From an uncultured Rickettsiales bacterium (GTDB taxonomy: Bacteria > Pseudomonadota > Alphaproteobacteria > Rickettsiales > SXRF01), in assembly GCA_964487265.1 (NCBI GenBank), contig CAZAQK010000001.1, positions 1-58,377 on the forward strand: a stretch of 58,377 nucleotides of DNA, read 5' to 3'. A program made the translations under genes and the position numbers. Positions 18,188 through 38,007 of the stretch are shown here, one piece after another. Every line of letters starts with the position of its first letter. Position 1 is the first letter of the stretch. The notes under the pieces were generated by a model, which searched no databases, was not told the origin of the DNA, and worked only from the letters and a program-made list of their open reading frames with translations.

Positions 18188-18315
18188 GGTTCTTATAATG
18201 CAAATACCGTGCCGACACCTCATATGAATTAAAATGTCACACTGATGCATGAATCACACAAACTTATAACATCTAGTTGTGCTAACCGATGGTTTTATAC
18301 TATATATAGTTAGTG

Positions 18316-20256
18316 ATGGCGCAGGGTTCTCGATTACGAACAACGTTACTGCACGGCACCGTATTGCTTTGCGTGCCGCTATTGCTGTCACTGCCGCAAG
18401 CCGATGCTCAGGCAGCCGAAGCAGCAGGCAGCGCAGCCACTCCTGTTTATAACAGCAACATGAATGCCTACCGCGCACGGCGGATCAAATCACGTGCCGA
18501 ATCATACCAGCAGCGCAAGCAATTCCCTCCTGTTCAGGAGGACGGCACAGCCGCAGAAACTTTGCCAGAACAATCCGAAATCAAGCATGCCCAGCCGCTT
18601 AAAGTGACTATCCCGAATGTTGCGGCAGCACCTTCTGCTGATAGTCGTGGTACCCAGATCGTAACCCGCTCATCTCCTGCCTATAAACAACTTGCGAGCC
18701 CACAACAGGGCAGTTCAGAAATGCAGCCGATTAGCGAGCAGCTGTCGGAAGCAGGCCAAGCGGTGACTTCCGCCATTGGCGATGCTGGCCGCAGCCTGCT
18801 TTCTGTCGTCATGCCCTCACAACCGGCAACCGAAGTAACCGATGATGTTCCGGTGGCCCTGCCATCCACCAGCCTTGCCGCGCAGGAGATGCCAGCTGCG
18901 GTAGCAGCGGCGGAAAACCTGCCTGCACCGTCTGCACCTGAACAGGCTCAGGATAGTGCGAAGCAGCAACCCAAGGAACCTGTGCGCTATTACTCGCCTG
19001 GTATCGTTATCAAAAAAGAAATCGTACGCCTGCCCATTGATGCCGAAACGCTGGCTTCCGCAAGTCCCGAGCAGCTTGCACAACTTGCGCCTGCTGCCGG
19101 AGAATCAACGGCTGGCGTTGATGCACCGCTGATTCCTGCACCGCCACCGTCTGGCGCACCACCAGCACCCACACCACCTGCTGTGCAGCCTGCCGCCACG
19201 CCGGAACTGACACCGCTGGTTGCGCCCGCAGCCGCACCTGCACAGCCTGCCTCCCCAGCGCAGATAACCACACCACAAACACCTGAGGATATTGCCAAGG
19301 TCAAAGAACTGGTGGAAACCCTGCCGGATGAATCCGGCCAGTCGGTGCCTGATGATACGTTGCCTTCGCTGGAAGCTCCTGCAAAATCGGAATCCACGCC
19401 TGAACCCAAAACGCCCATTGCTGCGCCTGCGCCACAGCCAGCAGTAAAAGCAACTGCAAGTGCGCCCGATGCCACGCAGGAGCAACCTTCCGACCTCTCG
19501 CCTAAAAGCAAGCAGATATTGCAAAAGCTGCCAGCCATGGCAGATGAAAAACCAACAGAACCCAAAGGGGCTGAAATTGACCGAAGCAAAGAAACAACCA
19601 ATATTTTCGATGCCGAGGTGCAGGATGCCACGCATGAATCTGCAGGCGTGAAGATCGAGGTCAAGGCACCTTCGATGAATATCGAATATGAGCTGGAAAA
19701 AGCTTACAATGCACTACTCTCTGGACAAAGCACCGCTGCTATCGGGATCTATAAAGACGTGTTGCTCAATGATCCCACAAACGAGGATGCTTTGTTTGGC
19801 CTTGCCACCACTTACCATCGCGCCGGCCAGATAGAAGCCGCCCGCCCACTATATGGTAAAATCCTTGCGCAAAACCCAACCCACCGCGCCGCACTCAATA
19901 ATTTCCTGGTGATGGTTGCTGATGAAGCCCCGCAGGAAGCCCTGATGCAGCTGGAAGCACTGGAGAATAAAAGCCCGTCTTTCAGCCCTATTCCTGCCCA
20001 GATGGCTGTGATCTACCAGAAACTCGGCGACCTACCCAAGGCAACCGAGAAAATGTTCAAAGCCGTTTCCCTTGCGCCGGAAAACCTGACCTATCGCTAT
20101 AACCTGGCTATCCTCATGGATAAGCAGCGTAATTATGAAGAAGCCGTTAAACTCTATGGGCAAATAACGCAAGCCCATGCCCGCGGCGAGATTACCCCTG
20201 GAAATATTAATACAATTCAGGAAAGATTAACCTTTCTGCGCTCTAATAAACGCTGA
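18316..20256 (+). CDS. secreted Pro/Ala-rich protein with C-terminal TPR repeats
   Basis: Signal peptide, a ~170-aa P/A-rich low-complexity middle, and TPR-like repeats in the last ~200 aa (AYNALLSGQSTAAIGIYKDVL..., LFGLATTYHRAGQIEAARPLYGKIL...). It ends 33 nt upstream of pilT. Confidence 0.7.
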   Translation: MAQGSRLRTTLLHGTVLLCVPLLLSLPQADAQAAEAAGSAATPVYNSNMNAYRARRIKSRAESYQQRKQFPPVQEDGTAAETLPEQSEIKHAQPLKVTIPNVAAAPSADSRGTQIVTRSSPAYKQLASPQQGSSEMQPISEQLSEAGQAVTSAIGDAGRSLLSVVMPSQPATEVTDDVPVALPSTSLAAQEMPAAVAAAENLPAPSAPEQAQDSAKQQPKEPVRYYSPGIVIKKEIVRLPIDAETLASASPEQLAQLAPAAGESTAGVDAPLIPAPPPSGAPPAPTPPAVQPAATPELTPLVAPAAAPAQPASPAQITTPQTPEDIAKVKELVETLPDESGQSVPDDTLPSLEAPAKSESTPEPKTPIAAPAPQPAVKATASAPDATQEQPSDLSPKSKQILQKLPAMADEKPTEPKGAEIDRSKETTNIFDAEVQDATHESAGVKIEVKAPSMNIEYELEKAYNALLSGQSTAAIGIYKDVLLNDPTNEDALFGLATTYHRAGQIEAARPLYGKILAQNPTHRAALNNFLVMVADEAPQEALMQLEALENKSPSFSPIPAQMAVIYQKLGDLPKATEKMFKAVSLAPENLTYRYNLAILMDKQRNYEEAVKLYGQITQAHARGEITPGNINTIQERLTFLRSNKR

Positions 20257-20289: not shown

Positions 20290-21438
20290 ATGGAAATCAC
20301 CGATCTTCTGGTGTTTACACAAAAAAACAAGGCGTCGGATTTACATCTTTCGACTAATAATCCGCCTTATCTGCGTATTTTTGGTGAGATGGTGCCCTAT
20401 AAAACTGCGCCACTTAGCACCGATGATATCAAACAGATGCTCTACTCCATCATGACCGAACAGCAGCGCGCCGATTATGAGCGCGACCTCGAAATCGATT
20501 TCGCGATATCGTTCGGACAGGACATGCGTTTCCGCGTAAACGCATTCAACACGATGAATGGTCCTGCTGCTGTTATGCGTACAATTCCAAACAACATCCA
20601 GTCGCTCGAACAGCTGAATGCGCCAGACATATTGAAAAAACTCAGCATGCTGCATAAAGGCCTTGTGCTGGTGACGGGCCCTACCGGTTCTGGTAAATCA
20701 ACAACCCTTGCGGCAATGGTGGATTTCATTAACGCTAGTGAACCTAAACACATCATCACTATTGAAGATCCTATCGAGTTCCTGCATGTATCGAAAAAAT
20801 CGCTGATCAACCAGCGCGAGGTTGGCAAGAGCACCAAATCATTCTCCCGTGCCTTAAAAAGCGCGCTGCGCGAAGACCCCGACGTGATTCTGGTGGGTGA
20901 GTTGCGCGATATAGAAACCATCCAGCTGGCACTCACCGCCGCAGAAACCGGTCACTTGGTGCTTGGCACGCTGCACACCAACTCCGCGCCCAAAACCATC
21001 GATCGTATCATCGACGTATTTCCGGCTGAAGATAAAGAAATGGTGCGTGCCATGCTTTCCGTATCGCTGGAAGGCGTTGTCACACAGGCCCTGCTCAAAC
21101 GCAAGGAAGGCGGCCGTATCGCCGTGCATGAAATCATGCTGGGTACGCCTGCCGTCAGAAACCTCATCCGCGAAGGCAAAGTGCCGCAACTTTATTCCCT
21201 CATCCAGATGGGCAGTAAACTTGGCATGTGCACCATGAAAGAATCCGTCTACAAGCTGCTGGAAGACGGCGTCATCACGGAAGCAGTTGCGCGTGCGCAA
21301 TTGGCCACCAGTGCTGACGAAGATTCCAGTGATCAGCATAGCGACACCAACACCAGTGCACAAGCTGATGCCAAACCGAAACCAGCCAAAAGAAGCGGTG
21401 GATCAGAAGGGTCCCATAGCGCATATACGGGATTCTGA
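20290..21438 (+). CDS. pilT: type IV pilus retraction ATPase PilT
   Basis: N-terminus KASDLHL, Walker A GPTGSGKST and PilT signature PAVRNLIREGK. An extra ~35-aa acidic/Ser-rich C-terminal tail. Confidence 0.92.
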   Translation: MEITDLLVFTQKNKASDLHLSTNNPPYLRIFGEMVPYKTAPLSTDDIKQMLYSIMTEQQRADYERDLEIDFAISFGQDMRFRVNAFNTMNGPAAVMRTIPNNIQSLEQLNAPDILKKLSMLHKGLVLVTGPTGSGKSTTLAAMVDFINASEPKHIITIEDPIEFLHVSKKSLINQREVGKSTKSFSRALKSALREDPDVILVGELRDIETIQLALTAAETGHLVLGTLHTNSAPKTIDRIIDVFPAEDKEMVRAMLSVSLEGVVTQALLKRKEGGRIAVHEIMLGTPAVRNLIREGKVPQLYSLIQMGSKLGMCTMKESVYKLLEDGVITEAVARAQLATSADEDSSDQHSDTNTSAQADAKPKPAKRSGGSEGSHSAYTGF

Positions 21439-21440
21439 TT

Positions 21441-22571
21441 ATGTCCATCAATCTCGACCAGCTCATCCAACACATGCTCGAGAAGGGCGCGTCAGACCTG
21501 TATCTCACCGTGGGCAAACCTGCCTGCCTGCGCATTGGCAATAACGTTGTGAATATTTCGGCTGATAAATTGACGCAGGCCGACGTGGTAAGCGCCATGC
21601 GCCTGCTGGTGAGTGCAGAAATCATTGAAGAATTCGATTCAACACTGGAATATAACACAGCCATCAACTGGCAGGATAAGGCGCGCTTCCGTGTAAACCT
21701 GTTCCGCCAGCGCCAGAATACCGGAATTGTGCTGCGCCGTATCCAGAGCTTGATTCCTTCCCTTACAGAGCTGAACCTGCCAAAAGTATATGGCGACCTG
21801 ATCATGGAACGTCGTGGCCTTATCCTGATTGTAGGCCCTACCGGCTCCGGTAAATCAACCTCGCTTGCCTCGATGCTGGAACACCGAAATATAAACGGCA
21901 GCGGCCATATCGTGACCATTGAAGACCCCATCGAATATATCATCGAGCACAAGAACTGCATCATCACCCAGCGCGATGTGGGCATTGATACCTATTCCTT
22001 CGGCATCGGCCTGAAGAATGCCCTGCGCCAGACACCCGATGTTATCGTCATCGGTGAAATCCGTGACCGTGAGACCATGGAACATGCCATCGTATTTGCA
22101 GAAACCGGCCATCTCTGCCTTGCCACGCTACACGCCAATAACTCCAACCAGGCAATTGAACGTATCATCAACTTCTTCCCGGAAGAAAAACATCCGCAGA
22201 TATTGCTCAACCTTTCGCTTAACCTGAAGTCCATATTGTCGCAACGCCTGCTTACTAATACGCAGGGATCACGCAGCATTGCCATCGAGATTCTGTTGAA
22301 CCAGGGTCTTATCCGCAACCTGATCCAGGAAGGCCGTGTACGCGAGATCAAGGATTGCATGGAGAAAAACCAGGATATCGGCATGCAGAGCTTCGACCAG
22401 GCACTGATAGAACTGTTTATCAGTGGCACTATCACCGAAGAAGTTGCACTCGCGGAATCTGATAATCCAGCCAACCTGCGCCTCGCCCTCAAGCAATATG
22501 CCATGAGCAATACGGAAGGCCCCTTCCGCACCATTCCCGGGCTTGGCATTATCAATAAGCAGCAGTTCTAA
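21441..22571 (+). CDS. pilU: PilT/PilU-family type IV pilus ATPase
   Basis: 376 aa with GASDLYLT, GPTGSGKSTS and GLIRNLIQEGR. It is the second paralogue, directly after pilT. Confidence 0.88.
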   Translation: MSINLDQLIQHMLEKGASDLYLTVGKPACLRIGNNVVNISADKLTQADVVSAMRLLVSAEIIEEFDSTLEYNTAINWQDKARFRVNLFRQRQNTGIVLRRIQSLIPSLTELNLPKVYGDLIMERRGLILIVGPTGSGKSTSLASMLEHRNINGSGHIVTIEDPIEYIIEHKNCIITQRDVGIDTYSFGIGLKNALRQTPDVIVIGEIRDRETMEHAIVFAETGHLCLATLHANNSNQAIERIINFFPEEKHPQILLNLSLNLKSILSQRLLTNTQGSRSIAIEILLNQGLIRNLIQEGRVREIKDCMEKNQDIGMQSFDQALIELFISGTITEEVALAESDNPANLRLALKQYAMSNTEGPFRTIPGLGIINKQQF

Positions 22572-24541
22572 ATCCTCTCCGGCGATATTGGGTAAACATC
22601 TGACAAGCCTTGATGTAATAAATCAAAAGCTTTCTGTTTCAGAAGGGCACGGTCATTATCAATGGTTATATTTGCCAGGCTTTCCTTGATAGTGAGCCAC
22701 CGGGCAGGCCGGTGTGTGGGTACCACGGCCAGCAACTCCTCGTAAATCGCTATTTTATCTTCCGTGCCTAATGAGGAATTATCTACCGCCTGCAGGAACG
22801 GCGTTGACAGATCATCCCGACGCGGTGCAATCCTTGCAGCGTGCAGCACGGCCGCTTTCCATGCGCTGGTTCCCACACGCAGCGGAGCAGTGGCTGTGAA
22901 ATCGCCGTCGCTTAACTGCTTTTGCAATGCAAGCTCAACGGCAATATATATTGCACTGCTACGTTCATCGTATGCCATTGTTTTCAGTGCGCCCAGCAAC
23001 TGATTTTTCCACTGGATGTCATTATCCGTTGCAAGCTTGCGTATATCACGCGCCTGCAATTGCTGTTGCAGTATAAACGCCAGCCGGTCACTGCCACGCG
23101 CTATATCTTTTTCTATCCAATCTTCAGGATAGTTCTGTGCCGGCTCGTTAAACGCGGCCTGCATCAGGTTTTTTCCATAGCGCATTGCATCATAATGGAG
23201 TGCACTGCTTACAGCCATGACAACCGTTACAACAAACATCAGCAGCAGGCACCACTGCGAAGAAAGCACTTTCCTGGGTGCTCCCCGCAGGCAGGCATGG
23301 GCAAACGCTCCATAACCCAGCGCCACATACGCCAGCTGGACCGGAAAATAAAACCACAGGAAGCTCATCACTATGACGGCACAAAGCACCGGTATCACCT
23401 GCCAGAAATATTGACGTGGCAATGTGCATATCACCGATAGTGGAAACAAAAACCATAGTACCAGACCAACCACGCCCAGCGCCAACAATGCCTCAAGAGC
23501 CTGATCATGGCTATGAAACGATGGGTTTTCATGCAGCGGCGCATACGAATCGAATATGCCGTCCTTGTATAGATGTGTACCCTTGGTCAGTGCGTAACGG
23601 AAATTATCGCTCAGGAAAATACCCCACCCCTCGCCCACCATTAACCGTAGCGGTTTATCGCTAATGGTCTGTACACCTATCTCGTGCATGGCGGCTCGAA
23701 TAGCCATGGATCCGCGCTTATCCGGAAAAAGCGAAGGCTGCAATGCCATCACATTCCATATGACTGCAATACCCAGCACAGCAAAGACAGAGGCTGCGCG
23801 CCAGCGCGTGAGCACACCAGAAAACAAGCGTGTGCTCGAGAATTCCCTGGCGATGTAACAAACCAGTAATGCCGGTAAGATCAGCAATACAGCTGCGCGC
23901 AGTTGTGATGCATATATGGCCAAAGCAACGAATACCGCCATGAAAAAAATATCGCGATAACACATGGTGCGCTTATGCAGAGCATATATGATCCATACCC
24001 ACGCCGCCATATGCGCCAGATACCCGCCAAATGTCGCCGGCAACCAGCTTGCAAACGATGTATGTTCGCCCAGTAATGCAAACATCGATACCTGCACAGC
24101 CGCAAGCCCTATACAGGCATTCACAATGATGCGGCGGGCGAACGGATTGCGCCATAACGCAAACCCCATCAGTGCCGTAAGCCAGACGGCACCATGCCAG
24201 GCAACACCGATGGCATGGGCAGGATACCCGAACCAGGAGCGCCACGCACTTTCTGCAAACGGCAACATGGCAATTTGCCAGAATACCCACGCATGCAGCC
24301 CCCACCAAAGCGGATGGCTGTAATAAACTGCCTGCAGCCGGTTTTTCCATATCCCCCATACGCACCATGCTGCCTGCAGCGCGGCAAGCATCAGGTAGGC
24401 CTGCTCTACCGGCTCAGTCTGAAGCCATAGCCCCGTACGAAACGGCGGCAATGCAAATATAAACAGGGATAGTTGTAAAACCATCAACACCACACCTGCG
24501 CCGGTAAATGCTGCGGGCGTGGCTCGACTGAGGCAAATCAT
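22568..24541 (-). CDS. O-antigen ligase / Wzy_C-family polytopic membrane protein with ~200-aa soluble C-terminal domain
   Basis: 657 aa with at least 10 TM segments. The hallmark loop-plus-helix motif FHSHDQALEALLALGVVGLVLWFLF (nt 23450-23518) matches the HxH(N/D)xxLexlxexGxxG signature of WaaL/PglL/TfpO-type enzymes. ATGA overlap with the upstream ABC gene. Confidence 0.65.
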   Translation of the reverse strand: MICLSRATPAAFTGAGVVLMVLQLSLFIFALPPFRTGLWLQTEPVEQAYLMLAALQAAWCVWGIWKNRLQAVYYSHPLWWGLHAWVFWQIAMLPFAESAWRSWFGYPAHAIGVAWHGAVWLTALMGFALWRNPFARRIIVNACIGLAAVQVSMFALLGEHTSFASWLPATFGGYLAHMAAWVWIIYALHKRTMCYRDIFFMAVFVALAIYASQLRAAVLLILPALLVCYIAREFSSTRLFSGVLTRWRAASVFAVLGIAVIWNVMALQPSLFPDKRGSMAIRAAMHEIGVQTISDKPLRLMVGEGWGIFLSDNFRYALTKGTHLYKDGIFDSYAPLHENPSFHSHDQALEALLALGVVGLVLWFLFPLSVICTLPRQYFWQVIPVLCAVIVMSFLWFYFPVQLAYVALGYGAFAHACLRGAPRKVLSSQWCLLLMFVVTVVMAVSSALHYDAMRYGKNLMQAAFNEPAQNYPEDWIEKDIARGSDRLAFILQQQLQARDIRKLATDNDIQWKNQLLGALKTMAYDERSSAIYIAVELALQKQLSDGDFTATAPLRVGTSAWKAAVLHAARIAPRRDDLSTPFLQAVDNSSLGTEDKIAIYEELLAVVPTHRPARWLTIKESLANITIDNDRALLKQKAFDLLHQGLSDVYPISPERI

Positions 24542-25278
24542 GGGTTCGCTGGAATTACAGATCCATCAATAGATTTTAAAAACGCTTTTTCGAGCGATTG
24601 CTCACCGTAGCGCGCCTTGAACGCATCAGGCTTACCGACATAGCATAGTTTGCCATTATGGATAACACCAATGCGATCGCAGATCTCATCGATATCGGAG
24701 AGGATATGCGAACTGAAGAAAATGGTGCGGCCTTTCGCCTTGGCATCCATCAGCAGGTTTTTCAGACGGATACGGGCGGATGGATCGAGACCGCTCATCG
24801 GTTCATCGAGAATAAGCAGCGGCACGTCCAGCAGCAACCCGCCAAGCAGGCCAAGTTTCTGCCCCATCCCTTTGGAATATGAACCGACGCGCGCATCCAG
24901 CACATCAGGGTTCAGATCAAGGGCAGCGGCCATACTGCGGGCCTTTTCCCTGTCCAGCTTCATGCCGTAATATGAAACTGCCAGATCAAGATATTCCATG
25001 CCCTTCAGGTAGCGCGAGGGCTGGAATTTCTCCGGCAGGTAGGAAAGTTGTTTGCGTGCATCGATATTGGTTGCCTTCAGGCCGAATATTTCGGCGTGCC
25101 CGCCATTAGCGGATGCCAGATCGAGGATGATCTTGATCAACGTGGTTTTGCCAGCTCCGTTCAGGCCAATCAGGCCAAACATCTCGCCTTCAACCAGCGA
25201 AAATTGTATCTGGCTGAGGACCGTGCGATCATTATATTTTTTATCAATATCGCAAATAGTCAGTGGGGCAGCAGTCAT
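24538..25278 (-). CDS. ABC transporter ATP-binding protein (ABC-2/NatA-like subfamily)
   Basis: 246 aa with Walker A GLNGAGKTT, signature YSKGMGQKLGL and Walker B LLILDEP. Confidence 0.9.
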   Translation of the reverse strand: MTAAPLTICDIDKKYNDRTVLSQIQFSLVEGEMFGLIGLNGAGKTTLIKIILDLASANGGHAEIFGLKATNIDARKQLSYLPEKFQPSRYLKGMEYLDLAVSYYGMKLDREKARSMAAALDLNPDVLDARVGSYSKGMGQKLGLLGGLLLDVPLLILDEPMSGLDPSARIRLKNLLMDAKAKGRTIFFSSHILSDIDEICDRIGVIHNGKLCYVGKPDAFKARYGEQSLEKAFLKSIDGSVIPANP

Positions 25279-26111
25279 TGTTTCTTCTCTTCTGTTGTAC
25301 CGTAAATAGCAACTGCTTCTGAAGCAGCAGCAGGCCCAGACGAAACGGGAGTATCCACCGGATTTTCGGCTGGCTTTTCCCCACTTGCTGATTCCGGCAC
25401 GGGTGAATCTGTAGATGAGAACACATCCTGCACGGCTTTCAGCGAATTGTCACTAACGGTTTTCGCCTGGAAATCCCTTTCTATTTCCTGGTTGTCAATC
25501 GTGACTGGCAACACTTTGCCTTCCAGGACTTTCATGACATAAGACGAGAATGTCTGGTTTGGTTTCAGCATAAATGACACAATACCGGCCGATTCATCCA
25601 CTACCGCGCCGCCATGAGCAACTTTGGCCCAGGTCTTCCTGACACGCTCCATATCCGCTGGCCGCCATTCAAGTGAGACCTGATGCTTGTCGATATTCCG
25701 TATCTTTATCTCGCTTTTTTCATGATTTGCTTCCGGCGTAATACGCTGGCCGTTTATCCAAACCGTCCAGTCCGCATCGCTGCGGAACACCAATGATTCA
25801 AGGAAAAACTGCGGATACGTAAAATAGCGCTCCTGCGAGCGCGCCTGCTTGATTTCGCCTGCCTGGTTGAGCCATTCTTCTGCATTAAAATCGGATGGCT
25901 GATCCCCGCCATCTCCACGATTGGCATAGGCAGAGAGTGCCTGGCGGATGCTTGCCACCTCATTGTCGGAATAAAAGATACTTTCAGGCTGAATTGCTTC
26001 TGCAGGAGCCGGCGGCGTATCCTGCGCTGTGGCATTAACCAGCGTGGCTGCATATGATAATGCCAGCAACATCCCATAACCCGTTATCTGCCGGCTGGCT
26101 CTACCGAACAT
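25275..26111 (-). CDS. secreted protein, possibly PilP-like
   Basis: Start at 26111 gives the signal peptide MFGRASRQITGYGMLLALSYAATLVNATA-Q. The beta-rich core LESLVFRSDADWTVWINGQRI resembles the PilP/GspC HR-domain pattern. The position after the PilO-like gene fits. Confidence 0.4.
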   Translation of the reverse strand: MFGRASRQITGYGMLLALSYAATLVNATAQDTPPAPAEAIQPESIFYSDNEVASIRQALSAYANRGDGGDQPSDFNAEEWLNQAGEIKQARSQERYFTYPQFFLESLVFRSDADWTVWINGQRITPEANHEKSEIKIRNIDKHQVSLEWRPADMERVRKTWAKVAHGGAVVDESAGIVSFMLKPNQTFSSYVMKVLEGKVLPVTIDNQEIERDFQAKTVSDNSLKAVQDVFSSTDSPVPESASGEKPAENPVDTPVSSGPAAASEAVAIYGTTEEKKQ

Positions 26112-26757
26112 TCGGTTTACCCTCCGTGCTTTCTGGTGCTTCCACTGGCTCGATGCCAAACCAGTTAAAGATCAGCTTGGCTGTGACAAGCGTGACATGC
26201 CCTTTATCGGCAATCGTTATCAGGGCTTCCTTGGAAACCTTGCTTTCACGCGTAACGGTAAGGCTTGTTACCTTGACTGCTCCTGGAAAATCTGCCTGAA
26301 GCGCATTGATGAGGTGGTAAATATCCTGATCCGTCATTGCTTCGATATTGAGGGTGACTTCATTATAGGTCATCACTGCCGATTTCTTGGCATACACGGG
26401 TGAATCTATTTTCTTTGACGCAGACATGTTGAGATCAATTTTCAACCTGAATTTGCTGCGATAATTTCTCAATATTTTTAAGATCTTTTCATCGCTCGTC
26501 AGCAATTCCTCACTGTCATTTTTGCGCTTGGCTTCTTCGTATACATCATGATTTTTCTGGATCTTGGTATATTTATCATTCAGCGATGCCATTTCATTGT
26601 TAAATTGCGTCATTGTAGTCTGTAGTGACAAATTGTCAGACTGGTATTCGTCATGCAGTGACATCAGCAAAAACAACGCACCCACGCCCAACGCAAGGCC
26701 ACCACCCATGAAGAGACTTTCAACCAGCAGGCGCTTTCTGATGATCTGATATTTCAT
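26101..26757 (-). CDS. PilO-like bitopic pilus alignment protein
   Basis: 218 aa with one TM helix (FMGGGLALGVGALFLLM), a coiled coil and a C-terminal alpha/beta domain. ATGA-type overlap with the upstream gene. Confidence 0.5.
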   Translation of the reverse strand: MKYQIIRKRLLVESLFMGGGLALGVGALFLLMSLHDEYQSDNLSLQTTMTQFNNEMASLNDKYTKIQKNHDVYEEAKRKNDSEELLTSDEKILKILRNYRSKFRLKIDLNMSASKKIDSPVYAKKSAVMTYNEVTLNIEAMTDQDIYHLINALQADFPGAVKVTSLTVTRESKVSKEALITIADKGHVTLVTAKLIFNWFGIEPVEAPESTEGKPNVR

Positions 26758-28514
26758 GGCAGAATCCCCGGTGGTGGAGGCAACAACCTTGATGGACGCA
26801 TTTCGGGTTGTGGCTGTTGGGGTTGTGCGGTAACAACGTCGCTGGGGTTAACAGGCCCTGTAAATTTAACTATCGCTTCCACCGGCCCTGATGGTTCAGG
26901 CGCAGCAGCATCCTGCTCTTCCATATCCTCAATACTGGCCTGTAATGCTGATTGCTCGGCGAAAGCGTCGGGAATATTGGAATAGGTTACAGTGTAGTTC
27001 TTAAGCCAAACCTTCATATCATCCAGTAATTTCTTGGATATGAGCTTGAAGCCTTTCTTGTCTTTAATGACATCAAGGAATTCCACCGTAATCAAGGCTT
27101 CGGATGTTGGCTTTTCAACAGCCATCAGCTTTGCTTCATTAGTTGCCTGCGTTTTGAGATCCCATGTGATCTTTTTTATCCAGACCGGTGATTCTTTAAC
27201 AGGTATCAGGGAGACAATAAACGGAATGGGAGAAGCCTTTTCCTGCTGCAACTGCATGTATAATTCCAGCAGATCGTTGGCTTTCTCGATATCAATATCC
27301 GAACGGTTGATTTCCTGGCGAAGCGTTTCTATCCGGCTGCGCTGCGACTTGATTTTATCTTCCATGTCGGCCGCATCACCCGACATCGAGAACATGTTGA
27401 ACGCAAGCACCGAAACATATCCCACAATCCCAACACCACATACCGTGGCTATCATACGCTGTGCCTTGAGCAGGCCGATATATTGGTTAACCTGCTTTGA
27501 CTGCGCCGTTGGAAGCGGCAGCACATGATTTCGGCTGCAGCCGATAGTTGCTGCCAGAATGACATCGCCGAACTGATCCGTTGGCTGGGTCGCACCTTCA
27601 ATATCCATATGCTGTGCCAGCTCATATGGCGTAAAGACATGAAGTGTAGCTGCCGGAAATTTATTTTTGTCGATTGCAGCCTTGATGCCCGATGAAGCAA
27701 CAATGTATATATCAAGGCCTTCCTGCACACTGAACGACAGCCGCTTCATGTATTCAATGGTGGAAAGCATTTCCTGTTCAATGTTCCCGGCGATCATTTC
27801 AGTGCTTGATTCACCAATTGGCTGGGCCAGACGGGTAAACACGATCCTGCCGTTGCGTAATATAACCTGCCTGAAACCACCTACTTTGTTATGGCTGACA
27901 AAAAATTTCCACTTGGTTGCGGCACGTTCCTTCGTCAGCCCGATGGCCCTGTCGATATATTTGACGATATTTTCAGACTCGACAGATACCAGCTGAATAC
28001 CGCGGAAATAATTGGGCAAATCCTCAACAAAACTGATCCATGTGGCAAGCTGCGGGTTTTTTTCGACCGCAATCATGATAAAGTTCCAGTCTTTCCGTCC
28101 TGTGGTCTCGCGCCCAAGGGTAATCGCTCCTTTGATTTCCATGGCACCAAATTCCCGATCGAGGCGGCGTTTGACCAGCTTGTTCACCGAGAGTGATGAT
28201 ACAGGAGGCAGTGTTTGCTGCAGATAGGTCTGGTCCATATTGTCCAGAACCATAAAAATCGGCGCATCCGTGTCTTTGGCTAACGTCTGGCGGAATTCAC
28301 CAATGCTCTGCAGGCTGGCATCAGGAACGAATTGCCGGCTCTGCACCGCATTGCCCTTGATATAAAGCAGGATGGCACCTTCGTCACCTATCAGCAGTAC
28401 GTATTTATTGCCTGCAGAAGGTTTGAATAATACGCCACCCGACGTGCTTTTTCCGCCTTCGCCTGATTTACGCTGCTTTATTTTTGCGATTTGTCCACCG
28501 ATTGAAAGAGCCAT
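26754..28514 (-). CDS. PilM-like (actin-fold) domain fused to PilN-like TM/coiled-coil domain
   Basis: 586 aa. The N-terminal ~350 aa have PilM-like strands (YVLLIGDEGAILLYI; FFVSHNKVGGFRQVILRNGRIVFTRLAQPIGES). These are followed by a TM helix (MIATVCGVGIVGYVSVLAFNMF), a coiled coil and an alpha/beta domain. Confidence 0.55.
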   Translation of the reverse strand: MALSIGGQIAKIKQRKSGEGGKSTSGGVLFKPSAGNKYVLLIGDEGAILLYIKGNAVQSRQFVPDASLQSIGEFRQTLAKDTDAPIFMVLDNMDQTYLQQTLPPVSSLSVNKLVKRRLDREFGAMEIKGAITLGRETTGRKDWNFIMIAVEKNPQLATWISFVEDLPNYFRGIQLVSVESENIVKYIDRAIGLTKERAATKWKFFVSHNKVGGFRQVILRNGRIVFTRLAQPIGESSTEMIAGNIEQEMLSTIEYMKRLSFSVQEGLDIYIVASSGIKAAIDKNKFPAATLHVFTPYELAQHMDIEGATQPTDQFGDVILAATIGCSRNHVLPLPTAQSKQVNQYIGLLKAQRMIATVCGVGIVGYVSVLAFNMFSMSGDAADMEDKIKSQRSRIETLRQEINRSDIDIEKANDLLELYMQLQQEKASPIPFIVSLIPVKESPVWIKKITWDLKTQATNEAKLMAVEKPTSEALITVEFLDVIKDKKGFKLISKKLLDDMKVWLKNYTVTYSNIPDAFAEQSALQASIEDMEEQDAAAPEPSGPVEAIVKFTGPVNPSDVVTAQPQQPQPEMRPSRLLPPPPGILP

Positions 28515-28579
28515 ACTGCCCTAGCATCCTAACGTACAATAATCCGCTTTGAACATAACACCAATCACCATAATAGATA

Positions 28580-29782
28580 TTAAAATTTCATCTTGCTGAA
28601 GGACTCATACAACGGCCCGAATACCGCAGCAATCACCCAGAAAATAATTACACCCATAACAATTGTGAGCGCAGGCTGTATCATGCCGACCATGGCTTCC
28701 ACCGCATCGTTTACTTCGCGGTTGTAGAAAAAGTTCACATTTTCCAGTGCTTCGGTCATGTTACCGCTGTCTTCGCCGACCTTGAACATACGGATCACCA
28801 GATTCGGGAACTGATTGGAAAGCCTGAGCGACGATGTGAGGCTATTACCTTCCATGACGTTGGTTTTCACCAGCTCGACCGAATCCTTGAGCACACGGTT
28901 GCCCACCACGCCCCTGGCTGCTTCCAGCGATTCCAATATATCGATACCACTGTTGAACATAACCGAGAAAAAGTGCGTAAAACGCGCCATGTCCAGCTTG
29001 CGTATCACCCCGCCAATAACAGGCACGTGCAGCATGAATGCATCCATGCGGTACGCGAAACCCTCGGAAAACCGATACATAATCATGATCAAAATCAGCA
29101 AAAAAGCAGGAACCCCAAGTATCAGATACCAATAATGCTGGAATGCGTAAGATACTGCAATCAGCGCACGGGTATGGATAGGAATATTGAAACCCTGCGA
29201 AACAATGAAATCCACTAGCTTGGGCACGACAAACAGCATAAGCACCGTGATCACGATGGAGATCACAATGACAAGTGCTATCGGATAACGCGTGGCTTTT
29301 TTGACTTTCCTGCGAATATCTGCGGTCCATTTTAAATGTTCCGTCAGGTGCATGAAAGAATCAGCGAGATTACCCGTTTTTTCCCCCGCGGCTACCAGGC
29401 CAACAAACACATTGCTGAACACTTTCGGATAAGCCGCAAATGCTTTGGAAAGCATGCTGCCGTTTTTGACCGACTCATAGACACCGGTCAGGATATCGCG
29501 CAGCTTGTCGGATTCCGTGGAGTCACGCACGTCTGCCAGCGCGTCATGCAGGGGCACCCCTGCCCTGTCCAGTTGCTCAAGATGCATACACAGGATAATC
29601 ATATCCTTGAGTTTGATGCTGCCAAAACGCGATGTTTTCTTAACGCGTGTCAGACGCGCATCAACCAGGTCAAGTCCCAGCTGCTTCAGGCGTGATTCAA
29701 GATCCAGCTCATTATCGGCTACGACGACACCCCGCATTTTGCGGCCTGCCGGGTTGATTGCTACATAGTTATAAATCGGCAT
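28580..29782 (-). CDS. pilC: type IV pilus platform protein PilC (GspF family)
   Basis: 400 aa with two GspF repeats and 3 TM helices. It lies 2 nt downstream of pilB. Confidence 0.9.
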   Translation of the reverse strand: MPIYNYVAINPAGRKMRGVVVADNELDLESRLKQLGLDLVDARLTRVKKTSRFGSIKLKDMIILCMHLEQLDRAGVPLHDALADVRDSTESDKLRDILTGVYESVKNGSMLSKAFAAYPKVFSNVFVGLVAAGEKTGNLADSFMHLTEHLKWTADIRRKVKKATRYPIALVIVISIVITVLMLFVVPKLVDFIVSQGFNIPIHTRALIAVSYAFQHYWYLILGVPAFLLILIMIMYRFSEGFAYRMDAFMLHVPVIGGVIRKLDMARFTHFFSVMFNSGIDILESLEAARGVVGNRVLKDSVELVKTNVMEGNSLTSSLRLSNQFPNLVIRMFKVGEDSGNMTEALENVNFFYNREVNDAVEAMVGMIQPALTIVMGVIIFWVIAAVFGPLYESFSKMKF

Positions 29783-29784
29783 GC

Positions 29785-31551
29785 TTACAACCTGTCTGTA
29801 AGGTCGATAGTGTTGATGAGTTCGTCAATGGTAATTTCACCCGCCAGCACTTTGTTGATGCCATCCTGCTGCATGGTGATAAAGCCATTACTTAGCGCAT
29901 AATCCGCCATAATTTTTCGCGTTGCATTGGTAGCGATAAGCTCGTCAAAGGCACGATCGATGCGCAACACCTCTACAATAGCCGTTCTCCCCTTCACTCC
30001 CTTGCGTGAACATTTCTCACAACCGATGGCATCATAAATATCAGGAGCTTTGGCAGCATCGACACCCAGGATTTTACATTCTTCTGCCGTTGCCTTGCGG
30101 GCCTTGCGGCAGTGCACACATAATTTGCGCGCCAAGCGTTGCGCGAGACAGCCTATGAGGGAGCCCGCCAGAAGATGCGACGGAATACCAATATCGTTCA
30201 AACGTGGAATTGCCCCAAGTGCATCGTTGGTATGCAGCGTAGTATAAACCTGGTGACCGGTAAGTGCTGCGCGCACCGCCATCAGTGCTGTATCTTCGTC
30301 GCGTACCTCACCGATAAAGATGATGTCAGGGTCCTGGCGCATCATCGACTTGATACCGTTGGTGAAATCCATGCCGGTACCTTCACGCACGTTACTCTGG
30401 CGGATAAGCGGCAGCTGGTATTCCACCGGGTCTTCCAGTGTCATGATGTTGGTGTCGATGGAATTGATGTAATTCAGTACCGAGTATAGCGTGGTAGTTT
30501 TACCAGAACCAGTCGGGCCGGTTACGATGATGATACCTTCCGGACGCTTGATCATGCGCTTGAGTATTGCCGTATTGTAATCAGAGAACCCAAGATTTTC
30601 CAGAGGTACCAGCGATTTTGCCTTATCGAGCAGACGCATCACGATATTCTCACCGTGAACGGTCGGCTGTGTTGCCACACGGAAATCGATCTCGCGGCCA
30701 AGCACCGTGTAGGTAATGCGGCCGTCCTGTGGATTACGCGTTTCAGCGATATTCATGCCTGACATAATCTTGATACGCACCGCCATCGCCGCCCAGTAAT
30801 CCAGATGGAGGGAACGAACCTGCACCATGTTACCATCGATACGGTAGCGCAGGCGCAGGAACGAGCCTTCCGGCTCAAAGTGGATATCTGACGCGCCCTG
30901 CTTAATGGCATCCACAAGCAGCGCATTCACCAGGCGCACTGTCGGGTTGACGTAGCCTTCCTGCCGGCCATCGAGCTTTGTGTGCTCGCGGATACCGGTT
31001 TCAATTTCTTTCAGGATCCCGTCGATCGAGATCTCGTAATCGTAATACTGGTCGATGAGCTCAAGGATTTCCGATTCCGTGCAGAATATCGGTACGATCT
31101 TGGCGTTACGCGGCACGTGCCTTCGCACCTGGTCGATCGCAAGCACGTTATACACATCCGCCATCGCCAGCTTAAGCATATCATTTTCGTAAGAAACCGG
31201 CAGCACCTTGTGGCGCACGGCAATTTCCTTCGGCAGCCGGCGTACAATTGCCGAATCGAGCACGGCGGATTTCGGATCGAATTTCTGCGTGCCGGATGAT
31301 TCGGCAAGCACCTCGCCCAGTGCAGATTCCGTGATGAATCCCATCTCGACAAGAATGGCACCGAAAAGTTTTTTGCTGGTCTTTTGCTCGGTCAGTACGA
31401 TCTGCAACTGGTCAGGCGAAATAAGGCCAAGCGACAACAGCTTCTCACCGATACGCATGGGTTTTGCCGGCTTGGCTGCGCCTTCGGCAGGTTCTGCGCC
31501 CGCATCGTCTAATGGGATTTTATCGCCTTCCTTTGACTTATCGGCAGTCAT
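29785..31551 (-). CDS. pilB: type IV pilus assembly ATPase PilB (GspE family) with MshEN-type N-terminal domain
   Basis: 588 aa with Walker A GPTGSGKTTT, Asp/His boxes and the tetracysteine motif CVHCRK...CEKCSRKG. It has an N-terminal T2SSE_N domain. Confidence 0.92.
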   Translation of the reverse strand: MTADKSKEGDKIPLDDAGAEPAEGAAKPAKPMRIGEKLLSLGLISPDQLQIVLTEQKTSKKLFGAILVEMGFITESALGEVLAESSGTQKFDPKSAVLDSAIVRRLPKEIAVRHKVLPVSYENDMLKLAMADVYNVLAIDQVRRHVPRNAKIVPIFCTESEILELIDQYYDYEISIDGILKEIETGIREHTKLDGRQEGYVNPTVRLVNALLVDAIKQGASDIHFEPEGSFLRLRYRIDGNMVQVRSLHLDYWAAMAVRIKIMSGMNIAETRNPQDGRITYTVLGREIDFRVATQPTVHGENIVMRLLDKAKSLVPLENLGFSDYNTAILKRMIKRPEGIIIVTGPTGSGKTTTLYSVLNYINSIDTNIMTLEDPVEYQLPLIRQSNVREGTGMDFTNGIKSMMRQDPDIIFIGEVRDEDTALMAVRAALTGHQVYTTLHTNDALGAIPRLNDIGIPSHLLAGSLIGCLAQRLARKLCVHCRKARKATAEECKILGVDAAKAPDIYDAIGCEKCSRKGVKGRTAIVEVLRIDRAFDELIATNATRKIMADYALSNGFITMQQDGINKVLAGEITIDELINTIDLTDRL

Positions 31552-31664: not shown

Positions 31665-34600
31665 TCAGGCCGCACTTGCGCGCAGTTGCAGCTTTTTGAG
31701 GCAGAAATCCACCCACTGTGCCGTGAGTTTTTCCTGCACGGAGTTCTGCCTGAGGCGGTCACTCAGGTGTGGGAAATCCACATGGTCCAGAGGCTGATCC
31801 TGATTGAAGCAGGAATAGACATAATACTCCCTGCCGGTTGCTGGATCGATATGTTTCTGCAGGCACTGCGCGCATATCTCTTTCATCATGCACTGCATCG
31901 GCGAGTTGATACTGCCAATAGCCACATGGTCTGACTTCAAATAAGGCTTAAGTACACTGTGACGAGCGGCACCCACTGCCGCCATCATGCGGTCAGAGCC
32001 GATGGCGATGATGTGGTTGATAGTGTCCAGCGGCCAGTGGCCAGTGACCAGTTTTCCACTCGCATAGGCAACCATCGCCTCGACAATATTACCCTTATAA
32101 CTCATATCCTGCGGGCGGTTTTTGGAAAGTTCGGCCTCATCGCAGCACCAGACAATAACATCCGCTGCCTGCTCGATTTCCTCGATCTTGTAGCGGTCGA
32201 TGGCCTTTTTATATCCGGCGAAATAGAGCACCTTCGAGCCTTTTGCCCTCAGTGCCTTGCCGATGGAAAAGAGCACGGCATTACCCAGCCCGCCGCCAAC
32301 CAGCATGACATGTTCATTGGCAGGAATTTCTGTGGGTGTACCCGTCGGGCCCATGAGAATGACTGGTTCTCCATTCTTCAAATGCGCGCACAGATCAGAT
32401 GAACCGCCCATTTCCAGCGCGATAACAGAAATAAGCCCTTTGTCCTTATCCACCCATGCACCCGTCATGGCCAGGCCTTCCATGGCAAGTGTAGTGGCTG
32501 ATATTTTCAGTGCATGTGCCTCAAAATTCTGCAGGCGATAGAACTGCCCGGGCTGGAATTGCTGCGCTGCAAGCGGTGCATGCATCACCACCTCGATAAT
32601 GTTCGGTGTCAGGCGATTCACCGCATGTACGGTAGCGCGTAACTGCTGATTTATTTTTGTTATAAATTCTGAACTCTGCACTCTGAACTCTGCACTCTTC
32701 CTTCTTGCAAGCGCAGCTGTCACCACCGGATAGCCCTGCTTCGCACTGCCCATGGCCTTCACCACATTACCGGCAAATGACGGATGCAGGTCACCAAAGA
32801 AGCTCACACTCCTGCCTTCTTCATCAATCGACATCAGCACATGCACGTCTTTTGGTTTCGATACGCGCTCAGGTTTTACATGGTTTCCGCTGGCATCCAC
32901 TGCCTTGAAATATTTGCCATCGAGCGCGAAGTGCTCGGGATCTTCACGTTGCAGCACTGTGTTAGGGTTCGTACCCGCTGCAATCAAAATGGTGCGGGCG
33001 GGAATGGTGATGGTATCATTCTCCGTACCCGCTTTCTTCAGTGTAATGCTGCTGGCATAGCCAGATTTATCACATCCGATCGCCTGCGGCTCGAAAAGCT
33101 CCGAGAAAAAGATCCCCTCTTCAAATGCTTTCTCTACTTCTTCATGATTCAGGCGGTAACTCGGCGCATCGATCAGCCGTTTGCGGTAAATGAGTTTTAC
33201 CCCACCCCATGCATCAAGCAAACTCCAGACATCCGGTTTTTCTTTTTTCTTTTCTTCACGAATAGCACGGCCATGCGCCAAAAATTCCTCGGCAATCAGT
33301 GTATCTTCCTCACTCCAGCTTTTACGCACCGCTGCTTCGCCGCGCTCTGCAACTAACGCTTCATAACGCGCAAGGAATTTTTCCACCTGCACAGGATAAT
33401 AGGCAAGTGATTCGGTTGCCGTATCAATGGCAGTCAAACCCCCGCCGATCACCACTACCGGCAGGCGCACCTGCAAATTGGCGATGGAATCCTTTTTCGC
33501 GGCACCGGTAAGCTGCAATGCCATCAGGAAATCTGAAGCCGTGCGCACGCCGCGAGAAAGGCCGCCGGGCATATCGATCAGTGTTGGTTTGCCTGCTCCC
33601 ATGCAGAGCGCAATGTGGTCAAAGCCCAGTGCAAAAGCATTCTCATACGTAAGCGATGAACCAAAACGCACCCCGCCGATCATCGCAAATTGCTCGCGCC
33701 GCTCAAGCAGCAGGCGGATGATCTTCAGGTAATTCTTATCCCAGCGCACCGTGATGCCATATTCGGCAACGCCACCAAAGCCCGCCAGCGTGCGCTCATC
33801 GAGTGATTCATAAATGGTGTTGATGTCTTTAATGGGTTCAAACGGCACACGCGTACCAAGTGCTGTTACGCCGGAAATATTTTCTGCCACCGGCTCGATT
33901 TTAAGCCCATCGATGCCAACCACCGTATGCCCATCATTTATCAGGTGATGTGCCAGCGTATAACCCGCAGGGCCAAGGCCTGCCACCAGCACGTTGCGGC
34001 CAGTATCTGCCTTGGGCAGCGGCCGTTCCAGATTCAGCGGATTCCAGCGTGTGAGCAGTGAATAGATTTCGAACCCATATGGCAATTTTAACACATCCTT
34101 CAACACATGCGTTTCCACCAGCGGGATATTCACCGGCTCCTGCTTCTGGTAAATGCAGGATTTCATGCAATCATTACAGATGCGATGCCCCGTGCCGGCA
34201 CACATGGGGTTATCCACCGTCACCATCGCCAGTGCACCAAGCGGCACACCTTCCGATTTCAGCATGTTCATTTCAGATATTTTTTCTTCGAGCGGGCAAC
34301 CGGCAAGCGTAATGTTGAGCGCATTTTTCTTATAAGCAGTGGCTGGAGTTTGGAGTTTAGAGTTTGGCAAAGACATCTCTTCACCAGACTCTAAACTCAA
34401 ACCACCAACCACTTTCTCCTTCATGCCTTTTGAGCAGGAATCTTTGCCCTGATTGTGGCAGAAGATGCAGTAATTCGCATGGTCGAGTGCTTGCTGTAAT
34501 GTACCAGCATCATCAGTAAGCTTAAAGCCATCGCGTGCGCGCAGATGGTGTTTGTGGGAGCGCATCACCGTCACGCCATCACGCAGTTCCGTTTCTACTG

Positions 34601-37169: not shown

Positions 37170-37995
37170 CGGCTCTTAGTCGCTCAAAGCTCGATTCATC
37201 CTCATCCGCACCCATCGGGCGGCCTGAACGTTCGGACACTTTGGTAGTTTTTAGTTCTTCGATGATTGCATCGATCGTTGCAGCACCGCTTGCAATCGGC
37301 CAGGTGATACCTCTCTCACCAAGTGAACGAAAACGCATCATCTGCCCATTGAAACTCCGACCTTCAAATTCATGATAAACCCGCGCGAAATATAGCGGCA
37401 CAATGGGGATATTTTCACGTTTGATATATTGCCAGATATCCAGCTCCGTCCAGTGCAGGAGCGGATGGATACGAAGCGACGTGCCGGGTGCAAAATCCGT
37501 TTTATACTGATCCCAGAATTCCGGTGGTTGCTCTTTCACATCCCATCCACCTTCCACGCCACGTGGCGAGAACACGCGTTCTTTCGCGCGCGTTGCTTCT
37601 TCATCACGGCGAATGCCTGCTATCACACCAGTGAACCCATGACGTTCCAATACCTGCTTCAAACCCAGCGTTTTACGGGATGCCACGCGGGCAGCATGTG
37701 GCAATGAATTATCGGTTTCTTCCAGCGGTGGGCATACGGGAGCTATTAAATTGATGTTCCACTCTTTCACATATTTATCACGGAAAGCATAGACCTCTTC
37801 CATTTCCAGTTCGGTATCGCAGTGAATAAGTGGAAACGGTACCTGCCCGAAAAATGCTTTGCGTGCTAAGTGGATCATCACGTTGGAATCTTTGCCGAAA
37901 GACCACAACATGGCGAGCTTGTCGATGGCGTTGAAAGCCTCGCGGAAGATGTAGATGGATTGTGCTTCTAATTGGTCAAGATGGTTGTGGGTCAT
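37156..37995 (-). CDS. cysD: sulfate adenylyltransferase subunit 2
   Basis: 279 aa with [21 protein letters not shown] and the PP-loop family pattern. Its ATG forms an ATGA overlap with the stop of the preceding four-helix-bundle ORF. Confidence 0.94.
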
Positions 37996-38007
37996 TGGTC
38001 ATTAGTC
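37991..38007. repeat. left arm of inverted repeat bracketing the four-helix-bundle ORF (GGTCATT heptamer units)
   Basis: GTCATTGGTCATTAGTC is complementary at 15/17 positions to 38351-38367. It contains the cysD start codon and the stop of the four-helix-bundle ORF. Confidence 0.8.

Follow-up and report, generated by a model that had tools for sequence, protein, structure and literature searches.

The DNA considered here is the whole of contig CAZAQK010000001.1 from an uncultured Rickettsiales bacterium, 58,377 nt in length (58 kb, hereafter the window), which carries on its minus strand an operon headed by pilB and pilC, coding for the extension ATPase and the platform protein of type IV pili. 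These two genes are followed by genes for a fusion of PilM-like and PilN-like parts (MN586), a PilO-like protein (O218), a candidate PilP-like protein (P294) and an ATP-binding cassette (ABC) ATPase. We read this region as coding for the core, in the cytoplasmic membrane, of a type IV pilus machine capable of retraction, belonging to the branch that holds type IVa pili (T4aP), mannose-sensitive haemagglutinin (MSHA or MSH) pili and type II secretion systems (T2SSs), and found only within a large group of alphaproteobacteria that are uncultured; we put the probability of this reading at about 0.8. The lasting findings are a large unannotated type IV pilus lineage, a fused PilM-PilN, PilO- and PilP-like parts that are orphans in sequence, and an integrated ABC module, while the missing pilin and secretin genes and the presence of a Wzy_C-family gene are contingent features of this contig and lineage. 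A preliminary description of the same DNA had proposed a variant type IV pilus machine, and this proposal stands. Its suggestion that the machine might work without pilin or secretin does not, since in relatives pilD, prepilins and a secretin of the MshL type are clustered together, and its idea of a distinct glycosylation system found no support.

The genes of the operon follow one another closely. pilB (29785-31551) is separated by 2 nt from pilC (28580-29782), itself 65 nt away from the gene for the 586-aa MN586 (26754-28514). Overlaps of 4-11 nt then occur at four junctions, namely between MN586 and the 218-aa O218 (26101-26757), between O218 and P294, between P294 and the ABC ATPase (24538-25278), which is the last gene of the module, and between the latter and the gene for a 657-aa polytopic membrane protein of the Wzy_C family (22568-24541), for which the longest open reading frame (ORF) is taken. 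The P294 gene spans 25275-26159 when read from a TTG codon (294 aa), or starts at 26111 when read from an ATG, as in the database gene call (278 aa). The preliminary description had listed pilB, pilC, the three middle ORFs, the ABC gene and the Wzy_C gene, tightly packed on the minus strand, and its coordinates are correct; it had overlooked the pilD gene (41414-42199) and a tetratricopeptide repeat (TPR) protein gene (18313-20256) directly upstream of pilT. A scan of the 18-32 kb region for promoters and terminators gave matches no higher than the shuffled expectation.

The first line of evidence for a dedicated machine is the conservation of this arrangement. A scan of one genome per GTDB species recovered 61 related loci, all of them from uncultured alphaproteobacteria bar one short contig. 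Wherever the contig is long enough, tblastn and ORF maps reveal the same order, pilB-pilC-MN-O-P-ABC, down to 25% identity of MN586, and because this gene order recurs in 61 independent loci, the arrangement lies far beyond chance. The junctions are consistently overlaps or short gaps, with MN-O and O-P gaps never exceeding 12 nt in 47 loci. The contig that stands apart by its taxonomy (L060) is 2.3 kb long, has 27% GC, is labelled Candidatus Actinomarina and gives a 22%-identical match; mis-binning of a fragment or a resemblance at chance level probably accounts for it.

The second line of evidence comes from a distant clade, L053-L058, in which the full cluster reads pilD-secretin-u255-u241-prepilin-pilB-pilC-MN-O-P-ABC and, further on, pilU-pilT-TPR-prepilin. 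Here u255 designates a candidate permease and u241 the small bitopic protein that follows it. A secretin is encoded in L055, L057 and L058; the one from L058, the sole one tested, scores best with MshL (TIGR02519, 214.8 bits for a cutoff of 250.2), ahead of GspD (129 bits) and PilQ (95 bits), and the secretin of this clade also gives a weak match to Pfam Secretin_N_2. Since relatives possess the full cluster, including pilD, secretin and prepilins, the system is probably a pilin- and secretin-dependent type IV pilus. Prepilin genes near the operon are not restricted to the distant clade, as they are found in L005, L010, L013, L028 and L052-L058. In L005, which belongs to the window's own clade, an N_methyl prepilin gene occupies the very slot filled by the Wzy_C gene in the window. 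The prepilins of related clusters are 240-790 aa long, resemble GspG in their N-terminal part only, and number one to three per cluster, with no GspG-K set. Those of L010 (17916-20270), L013 (15812-18181) and L028 (11070-13409), all on the minus strand and a few kb from the operon, are pilin-like proteins of ~780 aa. Their class III signal has a Gln in place of the canonical Glu at +5 (KGFTLIQ, DGFSLLQ), and they match the 'pilin2' family of the full clusters over their N-terminal 150-220 aa.

As the preliminary description had reported, the window itself holds neither prepilin nor secretin. A six-frame scan of the window found no prepilin motif, even when the +5 residue was relaxed to include the GFTLIQ type of L010, L013 and L028; tblastn with GspD and HofQ, as well as a secretin hidden Markov model (HMM) built from related loci, found no secretin in it; and a Pfam search of 40 of its larger ORFs returned neither a secretin nor an ABC-2 permease. 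The window nevertheless encodes PilD, the prepilin peptidase and N-methyltransferase (minus strand, upstream of pilB; Pfam A24_N_bact 98.5 bits, Peptidase_A24 62.4 bits), and its presence implies prepilin substrates in this genome. In this lineage, the block of secretin, permease and pilin genes is probably located elsewhere in the genome. A split layout does occur in nature, as illustrated by three low-GC loci in which pilD-secretin-u255 lies apart from pilB; in two of these, u241 and then housekeeping genes follow, and in the third the contig stops inside u255.

MN586 has at least 341 homologues, all of them without names and all from metagenome-assembled genomes classified as alphaproteobacterial or 'Rickettsiales'. 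An AlphaFold2 model built from 36 homologues (mean pLDDT, a per-residue confidence score, of 79.8) comprises a confident alpha/beta N-terminal domain (residues 30-335, pLDDT mostly >90), a helix of ~70 residues holding the sole transmembrane (TM) segment (354-372), and, after it, a coiled coil, a periplasmic alpha-beta-beta-alpha-beta-beta domain (~430-554) and a disordered Pro-rich tail. When this model was compared with the PDB by Foldseek, PilM structures came out first (5eou with E 1e-10, 2ych, 3jc8_Ma), followed by FtsA, and the significant matches included the cytoplasmic domains of GspL/EpsL (1yf5, 4pht, 1w97, 5tkw). The N-terminal half thus has the cytoplasmic actin-like fold (ASKHA, FtsA-type) that characterizes PilM, and the whole polypeptide, with its actin-like cytoplasmic domain, one TM segment and a periplasmic ferredoxin-like domain, has the architecture of GspL. 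The secondary structure elements of the C-terminal part (H430-441, E444-454, E470-479, H486-503, E508-513, E545-554) come in an order that would fit the two alpha-beta-beta repeats of PilO and PilN, as in PDB 2RJZ.

In sequence, by comparison, MN586 is an orphan: it has no match in Pfam or NCBIfam, nor among PDB sequences, where a profile search yielded a single non-significant match (E 0.45). Its C-terminal half aligned by hhalign to the single Escherichia coli GspL sequence with 24% probability, the best value of that comparison. The preliminary description had pointed to a degenerate nucleotide site in the FFVSHNKVGG segment, and this holds for one of the two phosphate motifs. The segment corresponds to residues 204-213, of which H208, K210 and G213 are invariant in the 36 homologues, so that the family has an H-x-K-x-x-G in place of the DxG of the second phosphate site; the first motif, G43-D44-x-G46, is however kept and equally invariant.

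O218 is a bitopic protein with a single predicted TM segment (14-32), a coiled coil and a C-terminal globular domain. Its family is large and uniform (455 clusters at 50% identity, all of ~215-240 aa) and matches no model in Pfam or NCBIfam, a PDB profile search giving coiled-coil noise only. The family profile nonetheless aligns with that of the C-terminal half of MN586 (hhalign probability 93%, E 3e-7, 137 columns); split in two, the alignment gives 92% for the coiled-coil part and 35% for the globular part, compared with <1% for unrelated control pairings. O218 is therefore likely to be a paralogue of the C-terminal half of MN586, a relationship read mostly from the coiled coil. This paralogy, if real, mirrors that of PilN with PilO and of GspL with GspM.

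P294 is a secreted or signal-anchored protein, in which a signal peptide or anchor is followed by a Pro-rich, variable linker and a pair of helices, and then by a beta-rich domain (residues 96-206) predicted with confidence by AlphaFold2 (pLDDT >90 over ~residues 100-200). Three weak signals point the same way. Among the non-significant Foldseek matches of this domain are PilP (2ivw, E 0.36; 4av2_M) and the homology region (HR) domain of GspC (3oss_C, probability 0.77, root-mean-square deviation 3.1 A, 53 columns). The family profile aligns with the periplasmic domain of GspB (4wfw, E 0.037), HR-type motif included, in a search of PDB sequences whose other matches were titin Fn3 fragments. Lastly, Pfam T2SSB is the sole recurrent weak match of the family, in four of 34 members (best E 0.0065). 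A secretin-binding adaptor of the PilP/GspC/GspB type is consequently the best, if unproven, reading of P294.

The account that the preliminary description gave of these proteins largely holds. A PilM-like actin-fold half is indeed joined by one TM helix to a PilN-like part; the next protein is PilO-like and bitopic, and apparently a paralogue of that part; the third has a PilP-like beta core, as far as its weak, convergent matches to GspB, GspC-HR and PilP go; and the ABC ATPase, conserved and tightly linked across loci, is coupled to them. Compared with PilM, PilN, PilO and PilP by profile and by structure, as it had proposed, MN586 displays the PilM fold, but none of the three proteins matches a sequence model, be it in Pfam or NCBIfam at E 0.01.

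The ABC ATPase consists of a nucleotide-binding domain (NBD) of the ABC-2/ABCA/NosF type and nothing else. Pfam ABC_tran scores 73.4 bits, the best NCBIfam models are of DrrA, RbbA and GldA types, and the best solved structures are ABCA NBDs, TM0544, NosF and Rv1218c. Its gene follows the P gene in 47 loci, and in two more by tblastn where the longest-ORF call is ambiguous. Among the 47, the ABC gene overlaps the stop codon of P in 16 and begins no further than 30 nt away in another 25, which makes 41/47 up to that distance. The protein is better conserved than MN, O and P (49-87% identity), and 51 orthologues share, without variation, the majority of residues in its Walker A, signature (S-K-G), Walker B, D-loop and H-loop motifs. 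Such conservation marks it as a functional ATPase maintained by selection and as a genuine component of the module.

A permease directly after the ABC gene was looked for in other loci and ruled out, as the downstream ORFs encode DUF1275, Alph_Pro_TM or GIY-YIG proteins, or are missing altogether. The DUF1275 membrane protein gene is a feature of a low-GC subclade (L019 13924-14700, L020 5561-6343 and L021 13857-14576; plus strand), and the Alph_Pro_TM gene (PF09608) was seen in L027. In L034 (13202-15061, plus strand), the P gene is followed by a gene for a 619-aa ABC protein that replaces the 240-aa NBD and is ABC-F-like by its length and N-terminal sequence.

A better candidate for the permease is u255, a protein of ~255 aa with 5-6 TM segments present in L053, L055, L057, L058 and 27 metagenomic loci. 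In all four homologues tested, its best Pfam match is ABC2_membrane_4, colinear but under cutoff (E 5e-4 to 0.47). The metagenomic loci, recovered by a scan with u255 itself, have a secretin before it in 20 cases and u241 after it in 24, the contig breaking off at that point in the others, and the longer ones run on into pilin(s)-pilB-pilC-MN-O-P-ABC. The statement of the preliminary description that the ATPase has no separate permease gene is hence true of the window, but not of related clusters, in which a candidate ABC-2 permease is encoded next to the secretin gene. In the main reading proposed here, the ATPase would power the u255 permease together with its u241 partner, as a counterpart of PilH, PilI and PilG of Myxococcus xanthus. 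Going further, the ABC transporter may be an ancestral and obligatory module of this pilus lineage, with the ATPase coupled genetically to the PilP-like adaptor, and the permease and its bitopic partner to the secretin, and with a direct role in pilus biogenesis; we hold this further view tentatively and with more doubt than conviction. If it is correct, the role of the transporter would be mechanical or in substrate handling (extraction of pilins from the membrane or their insertion, or lipid or glycan handling) instead of that of a neighbouring housekeeping exporter and, together with PilGHI, it would define a recurrent and overlooked class of components of type IV filament machines.

M. xanthus needs PilG, PilH and PilI for its type IV pili (PMC3724824, with reference to Wu et al. 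1998; PMC6060248) and, reportedly, for pilin translocation (PMC3724824, PMC6060248). As there, an ABC ATPase is encoded inside the pilus cluster and conserved with it, and related clusters add a polytopic ABC-2-like protein of ~255 aa along with a small bitopic one. In contrast to PilGHI, the ATPase gene stands apart from the candidate permease gene and is coupled to the PilP-like gene, whereas the permease and accessory genes sit beside the secretin gene.

This separation also feeds an alternative, in which the ABC ATPase has no dedicated permease and serves as a soluble or peripheral subunit that regulates or energises the alignment complex, for instance by acting on the PilM-like domain. 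The gene lies as tightly behind P as described above and always at least six genes away from that of the candidate permease, and most clades have no permease gene within 10 kb; the replacement of the second phosphate DxG of MN586 by an invariant H-x-K-x-x-G would also suit such a role. However, the NBD is of a kind typical of ABC-2/ABCA/NosF transporters, the full cluster has as a fixed member a protein of 5-6 TM segments that consistently resembles ABC2_membrane_4, and M. xanthus PilGHI offers the precedent of a complete transporter (PMC3724824). We consider a permease-free ATPase rather unlikely.

Several observations weigh against the type IV pilus reading or parts of it. The permease would be assigned from Pfam matches that are only sub-threshold, and u255 has no sequence match in the PDB. 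The signal linking O218 to MN586 sits mostly in the coiled coil, with the globular part at only 35%. For P294, Foldseek gave nothing significant (best E 0.19), and no Cys, hence no lipobox, is visible in its N-terminal region, unlike in the lipoprotein PilP. Scans of whole families (36 MN586, 56 O218 and 34 P294 members, E up to 1) retrieved no PilM/N/O/P or GspL/M/C model from Pfam or NCBIfam, and no signal emerged when the family profiles were aligned by hhalign with single E. coli sequences of GspB/C/L/M and HofM/N/O/P. HMMs of the secretin, u255 and u241 had no match in the window, nor in L001-L051 up to 10 kb from the operon. Finally, in the window's clade pilD is still upstream of pilB, and sulfate-assimilation genes and a GltD-like gene stand where the secretin-permease-pilin block sits in distant relatives; on the evidence of this contig, the block may have been lost instead of relocated.

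The motor proteins support the pilus reading, and they are also where its resemblance to a T2SS has to be weighed. PilB, a hexameric-type ATPase, matches Pfam T2SSE (407.9 bits) and carries an N-terminal MshEN-type motif for binding of cyclic di-GMP (c-di-GMP), with MshEN at 62.7 bits and the c-di-GMP motif model NF053729 at 60.7 bits, over its cutoff of 38; the tandem motif is visible in the sequence (RIGEKLLSLGLISPDQLQIVLTEQ). Against solved structures, full-length PilB is closest to PilF/PilB of T4aP (415-370 bits), GspE reaching 357 bits. PilC matches Pfam T2SSF in two stretches (169.7 bits) and has three predicted TM segments. On the plus strand, convergent to the operon, lie the genes for the retraction ATPase PilT (20290-21438) and its paralogue PilU (21441-22571), both of which exceed the cutoff of 319 of the NCBIfam pilT_fam model, with 473.1 and 412.2 bits, respectively.

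A T2SS-like system driven by a pseudopilus piston, with MN586 as GspL, O218 as GspM and P294 as a GspC- or GspB-like adaptor, would account for part of these data. The classical example of a PilM-PilN fusion is GspL, or PulL (PMC10191384), and cytoplasmic domains of GspL/EpsL also turned up in the fold search with MN586, which shares with GspL the succession of actin-like domain, TM segment and ferredoxin-like periplasmic domain; GspM is a bitopic, paralogue-like partner, as O218 would be; and GspB and GspC provide the sole recurrent weak matches of P294, through the HR domain. The GspE and GspF models of NCBIfam equal or exceed the pilus models (507.9 bits for GspE compared with 504.4 for PilB; 308 for GspF compared with 225-239 for the PilC models), and when the ATPase core is taken alone, GspE 1p9r scores above the Thermus PilF core (351 and 315 bits). 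But the GspE, GspF and GspD scores are all under their curated cutoffs, as are those of the PilB and PilC models, and no T2SSL, T2SSM or T2SSC match was found in Pfam. Furthermore, the large prepilins of related clusters do not form a G-K set, the score of the tested secretin with MshL is far over that with GspD, and in about half of the loci the operon has pilT and pilU as convergent neighbours. T2SSs are not known to have a retraction ATPase. We regard this possibility as very unlikely.

The TPR gene upstream of pilT is the first gene of a TPR-pilT-pilU unit, which is the element found convergent to the operon in that half of the loci. Its product, TPR647 (plus strand), is secreted and has a TPR domain at its C-terminus as well as a long linker rich in Pro and Ala; it matches Pfam TPR families and, weakly and well under cutoff, the NCBIfam PilW (39 bits) and Tgl (25 bits) models. 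A homologue adjoins pilT in 28 loci and lies upstream of pilD in metagenomic full clusters. TPR647 is a candidate accessory protein of the PilF/PilW/Tgl or MshN type. In the distant clade, the TPR protein adjoining pilT in L058 (16232-17857, minus strand) has an SLT lytic transglycosylase domain (PF01464, E 3e-9), which suggests peptidoglycan remodelling for insertion of the machine; Pfam found no such domain in TPR647.

In the type IV pilus machine proposed here, PilB would drive PilC, and the pilus would respond to c-di-GMP. In the cytoplasm, the actin-like domain of MN586 would hold this motor, the task of PilM and GspL in their own systems, and the periplasmic part of MN586 would pair with O218, as in PilN-PilO and GspL-GspM. 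The beta domain of P294 would then form the bridge from this pair to a secretin of the MshL type, at its N-terminal domains, in the manner of PilP, GspC-HR and GspB, with TPR647 assisting the secretin or the outer-membrane part. PilD would process prepilins encoded elsewhere, PilT and PilU would retract the pilus, and the pilins, secretin and permease would all be encoded outside the 58-kb contig.

Homologues of PilMNOP are known from T4aP, MSH and T2SSs (PMC6668835), and the machine borrows traits from each. Like the T4aP of Pseudomonas aeruginosa, M. xanthus and Thermus thermophilus, it has the motor set PilB, PilC, PilT, PilU and PilD, an extension ATPase that is nearest PilF/PilB among solved structures over its full length, PilM as the top fold of MN586, a bitopic coiled-coil partner and a secreted beta-domain protein in N/O/P order, and related clusters with secretin and prepilins. 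Unlike them, it has PilM and PilN fused, matches no curated PilM/N/O/P model, and has a P protein that is not a lipoprotein; the MNOP-like genes come after pilBC and not before pilQ, an ABC ATPase is fixed at the end of the operon, and the tested related secretin is MshL-like and not PilQ-like.

The MSHA system of Vibrio cholerae (MshE, MshG, MshI, MshJ, MshK, MshL, MshM, MshN) has other traits in common with the machine. Its extension ATPase has the MshEN c-di-GMP motif found over curated cutoff in PilB, its secretin MshL is the best match of the tested related one, though below cutoff, and its MshN parallels the TPR protein of the cluster. MshI is itself a fusion of the PilM/PilN type. MSHA pili are, moreover, retracted by PilT (PMC9815625). 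The gene orders differ, being E-G-I-J-K-like here and I-J-K-L-M-N-E-G in Vibrio; in place of the P-loop protein MshM, the additional ATPase here is an ABC NBD, and PilT and PilU are encoded with the system. The Pfam and NCBIfam libraries returned no match to MshI, MshJ, MshK or MshM models.

Type IV pili retracted by PilT are familiar from cyanobacteria and from beta-, gamma- and deltaproteobacteria, and alphaproteobacteria are regarded as users of Tad/Cpa pili. In full-text literature searches, no paper was found to describe a T4aP-type system with PilMNOP from this last class. The lineage is nonetheless abundant, as judged from the numbers of MN586 homologues and O218 clusters given above, and since neither Pfam nor NCBIfam detects its alignment-complex proteins, standard pipelines would call such systems incomplete. 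In the further view of the ABC module given above, MN586, O218, P294, u255 and u241 would represent new, unannotated families of the superfamily. The intermediate architecture, in which PilT/U stand beside a GspL-like fusion and an ATPase and secretin of the MshE/MshL kind, should be useful for reconstructing the divergence of T4aP, MSH and T2SS, and the strictly conserved ABC module provides a separate line of comparison for asking why certain type IV pili depend on an ABC transporter, a question open since the description of PilGHI in 1998.

The Wzy_C protein, which the preliminary description had included in the system, does not belong with these components. Its Wzy_C domain scores over cutoff (PF04932, 43.9 bits for a cutoff of 31.7), and is accompanied by ~8-9 hydrophobic segments and a soluble C-terminal domain of ~200 aa. 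By tblastn (E 1e-3), none of the 61 related loci has it, not even those nearest to the window, at 70-94% identity; the module survey thus finds the PilMN fusion and the ABC gene recurring across genomes, but never Wzy_C. In the closest relative, L001 (PilB 93% identical), the ABC and pilU genes are separated by a gap of ~10 nt, and it is exactly this gap that the Wzy_C gene fills in the window. Only four homologues, all distant (best 29% identity), were found in 5.8 billion proteins. Three of their contigs were read, and showed housekeeping genes or were too short to tell, with no pil genes and no adjoining pilin. Judged by this distribution, Wzy_C is a lineage-specific insertion, unrelated or at most accessory to the conserved pilus module.

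A horizontal origin of the gene was considered from its composition, in which no anomaly appears (GC 0.52, GC at third codon positions 0.55, like its neighbours). In the WaaL, Wzy and PglL/TfpO family, to which its domain, polytopic nature and location next to pilus genes liken it, TfpO/PilO adjoins pilA in P. aeruginosa. The window protein differs in being unlinked to the operon in relatives, nearly orphan, and extended by the soluble domain. A function as pilin glycosyltransferase was rejected as unsupported, with no adjoining pilin in the window or at its homologues; its role may be that of a lipopolysaccharide or glycan ligase, or conceivably in pilin glycosylation. In L065 (1764-3814, plus strand), the soluble C-terminal domain, recognizable by the motif APRRDD..PFL...AVxPxHR, is a separate ORF downstream of the Wzy_C homologue, and either the window protein is a fusion of two modules or L065 is frameshifted.

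A machine lacking pilin and secretin, in which the PilB/C/MNOP-like core would work with the ABC and Wzy_C proteins to export or ligate a glycan or another non-pilin substrate, could be argued from the 4-nt overlap of the longest Wzy_C ORF with the ABC stop codon, from a contig without pilin, secretin or permease, and from the missing block between pilD and pilB in the window's clade, but is extremely improbable given that Wzy_C is found in none of the 61 loci and its homologues are not beside pil genes, that the database gene call (638 aa, start ~24484) begins 19 codons later and removes the overlap, that pilD is kept, that relatives of the nearer clades have prepilin genes close to the operon, and that retention of PilT and PilU would make sense only with a retractable filament.

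Around these genes, the contig holds, between pilD and pilB, the sulfate-assimilation and GltD-like genes mentioned above and is otherwise of housekeeping content. The gene directly upstream of pilB (31665-35195, minus strand) encodes a 1176-aa fusion protein matching NCBIfam PRK06567, a 'glutamate synthase beta / 2-polyprenylphenol hydroxylase'-like family, with 836.8 bits (cutoff 1072). It holds this position in most loci of the window's clade and may be co-transcribed with cysDN. Between cysD and cysH, a gene at 37992-38363 (minus strand) codes for a 123-aa '23S rRNA intervening-sequence protein', a bAvd-like four-helix bundle (PF05635, 138 bits), of which tblastn (E 1e-3) found no homologue in the 61 related loci. 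At the other end of the region, two adjacent genes on the minus strand (13445-14602 and 14606-15703) encode paralogous polytopic membrane proteins of 385 and 365 aa without Pfam match, a pair that is kept beyond the MlaD and DUF2155 genes in L001, L002, L011, L017, L018 and L031.

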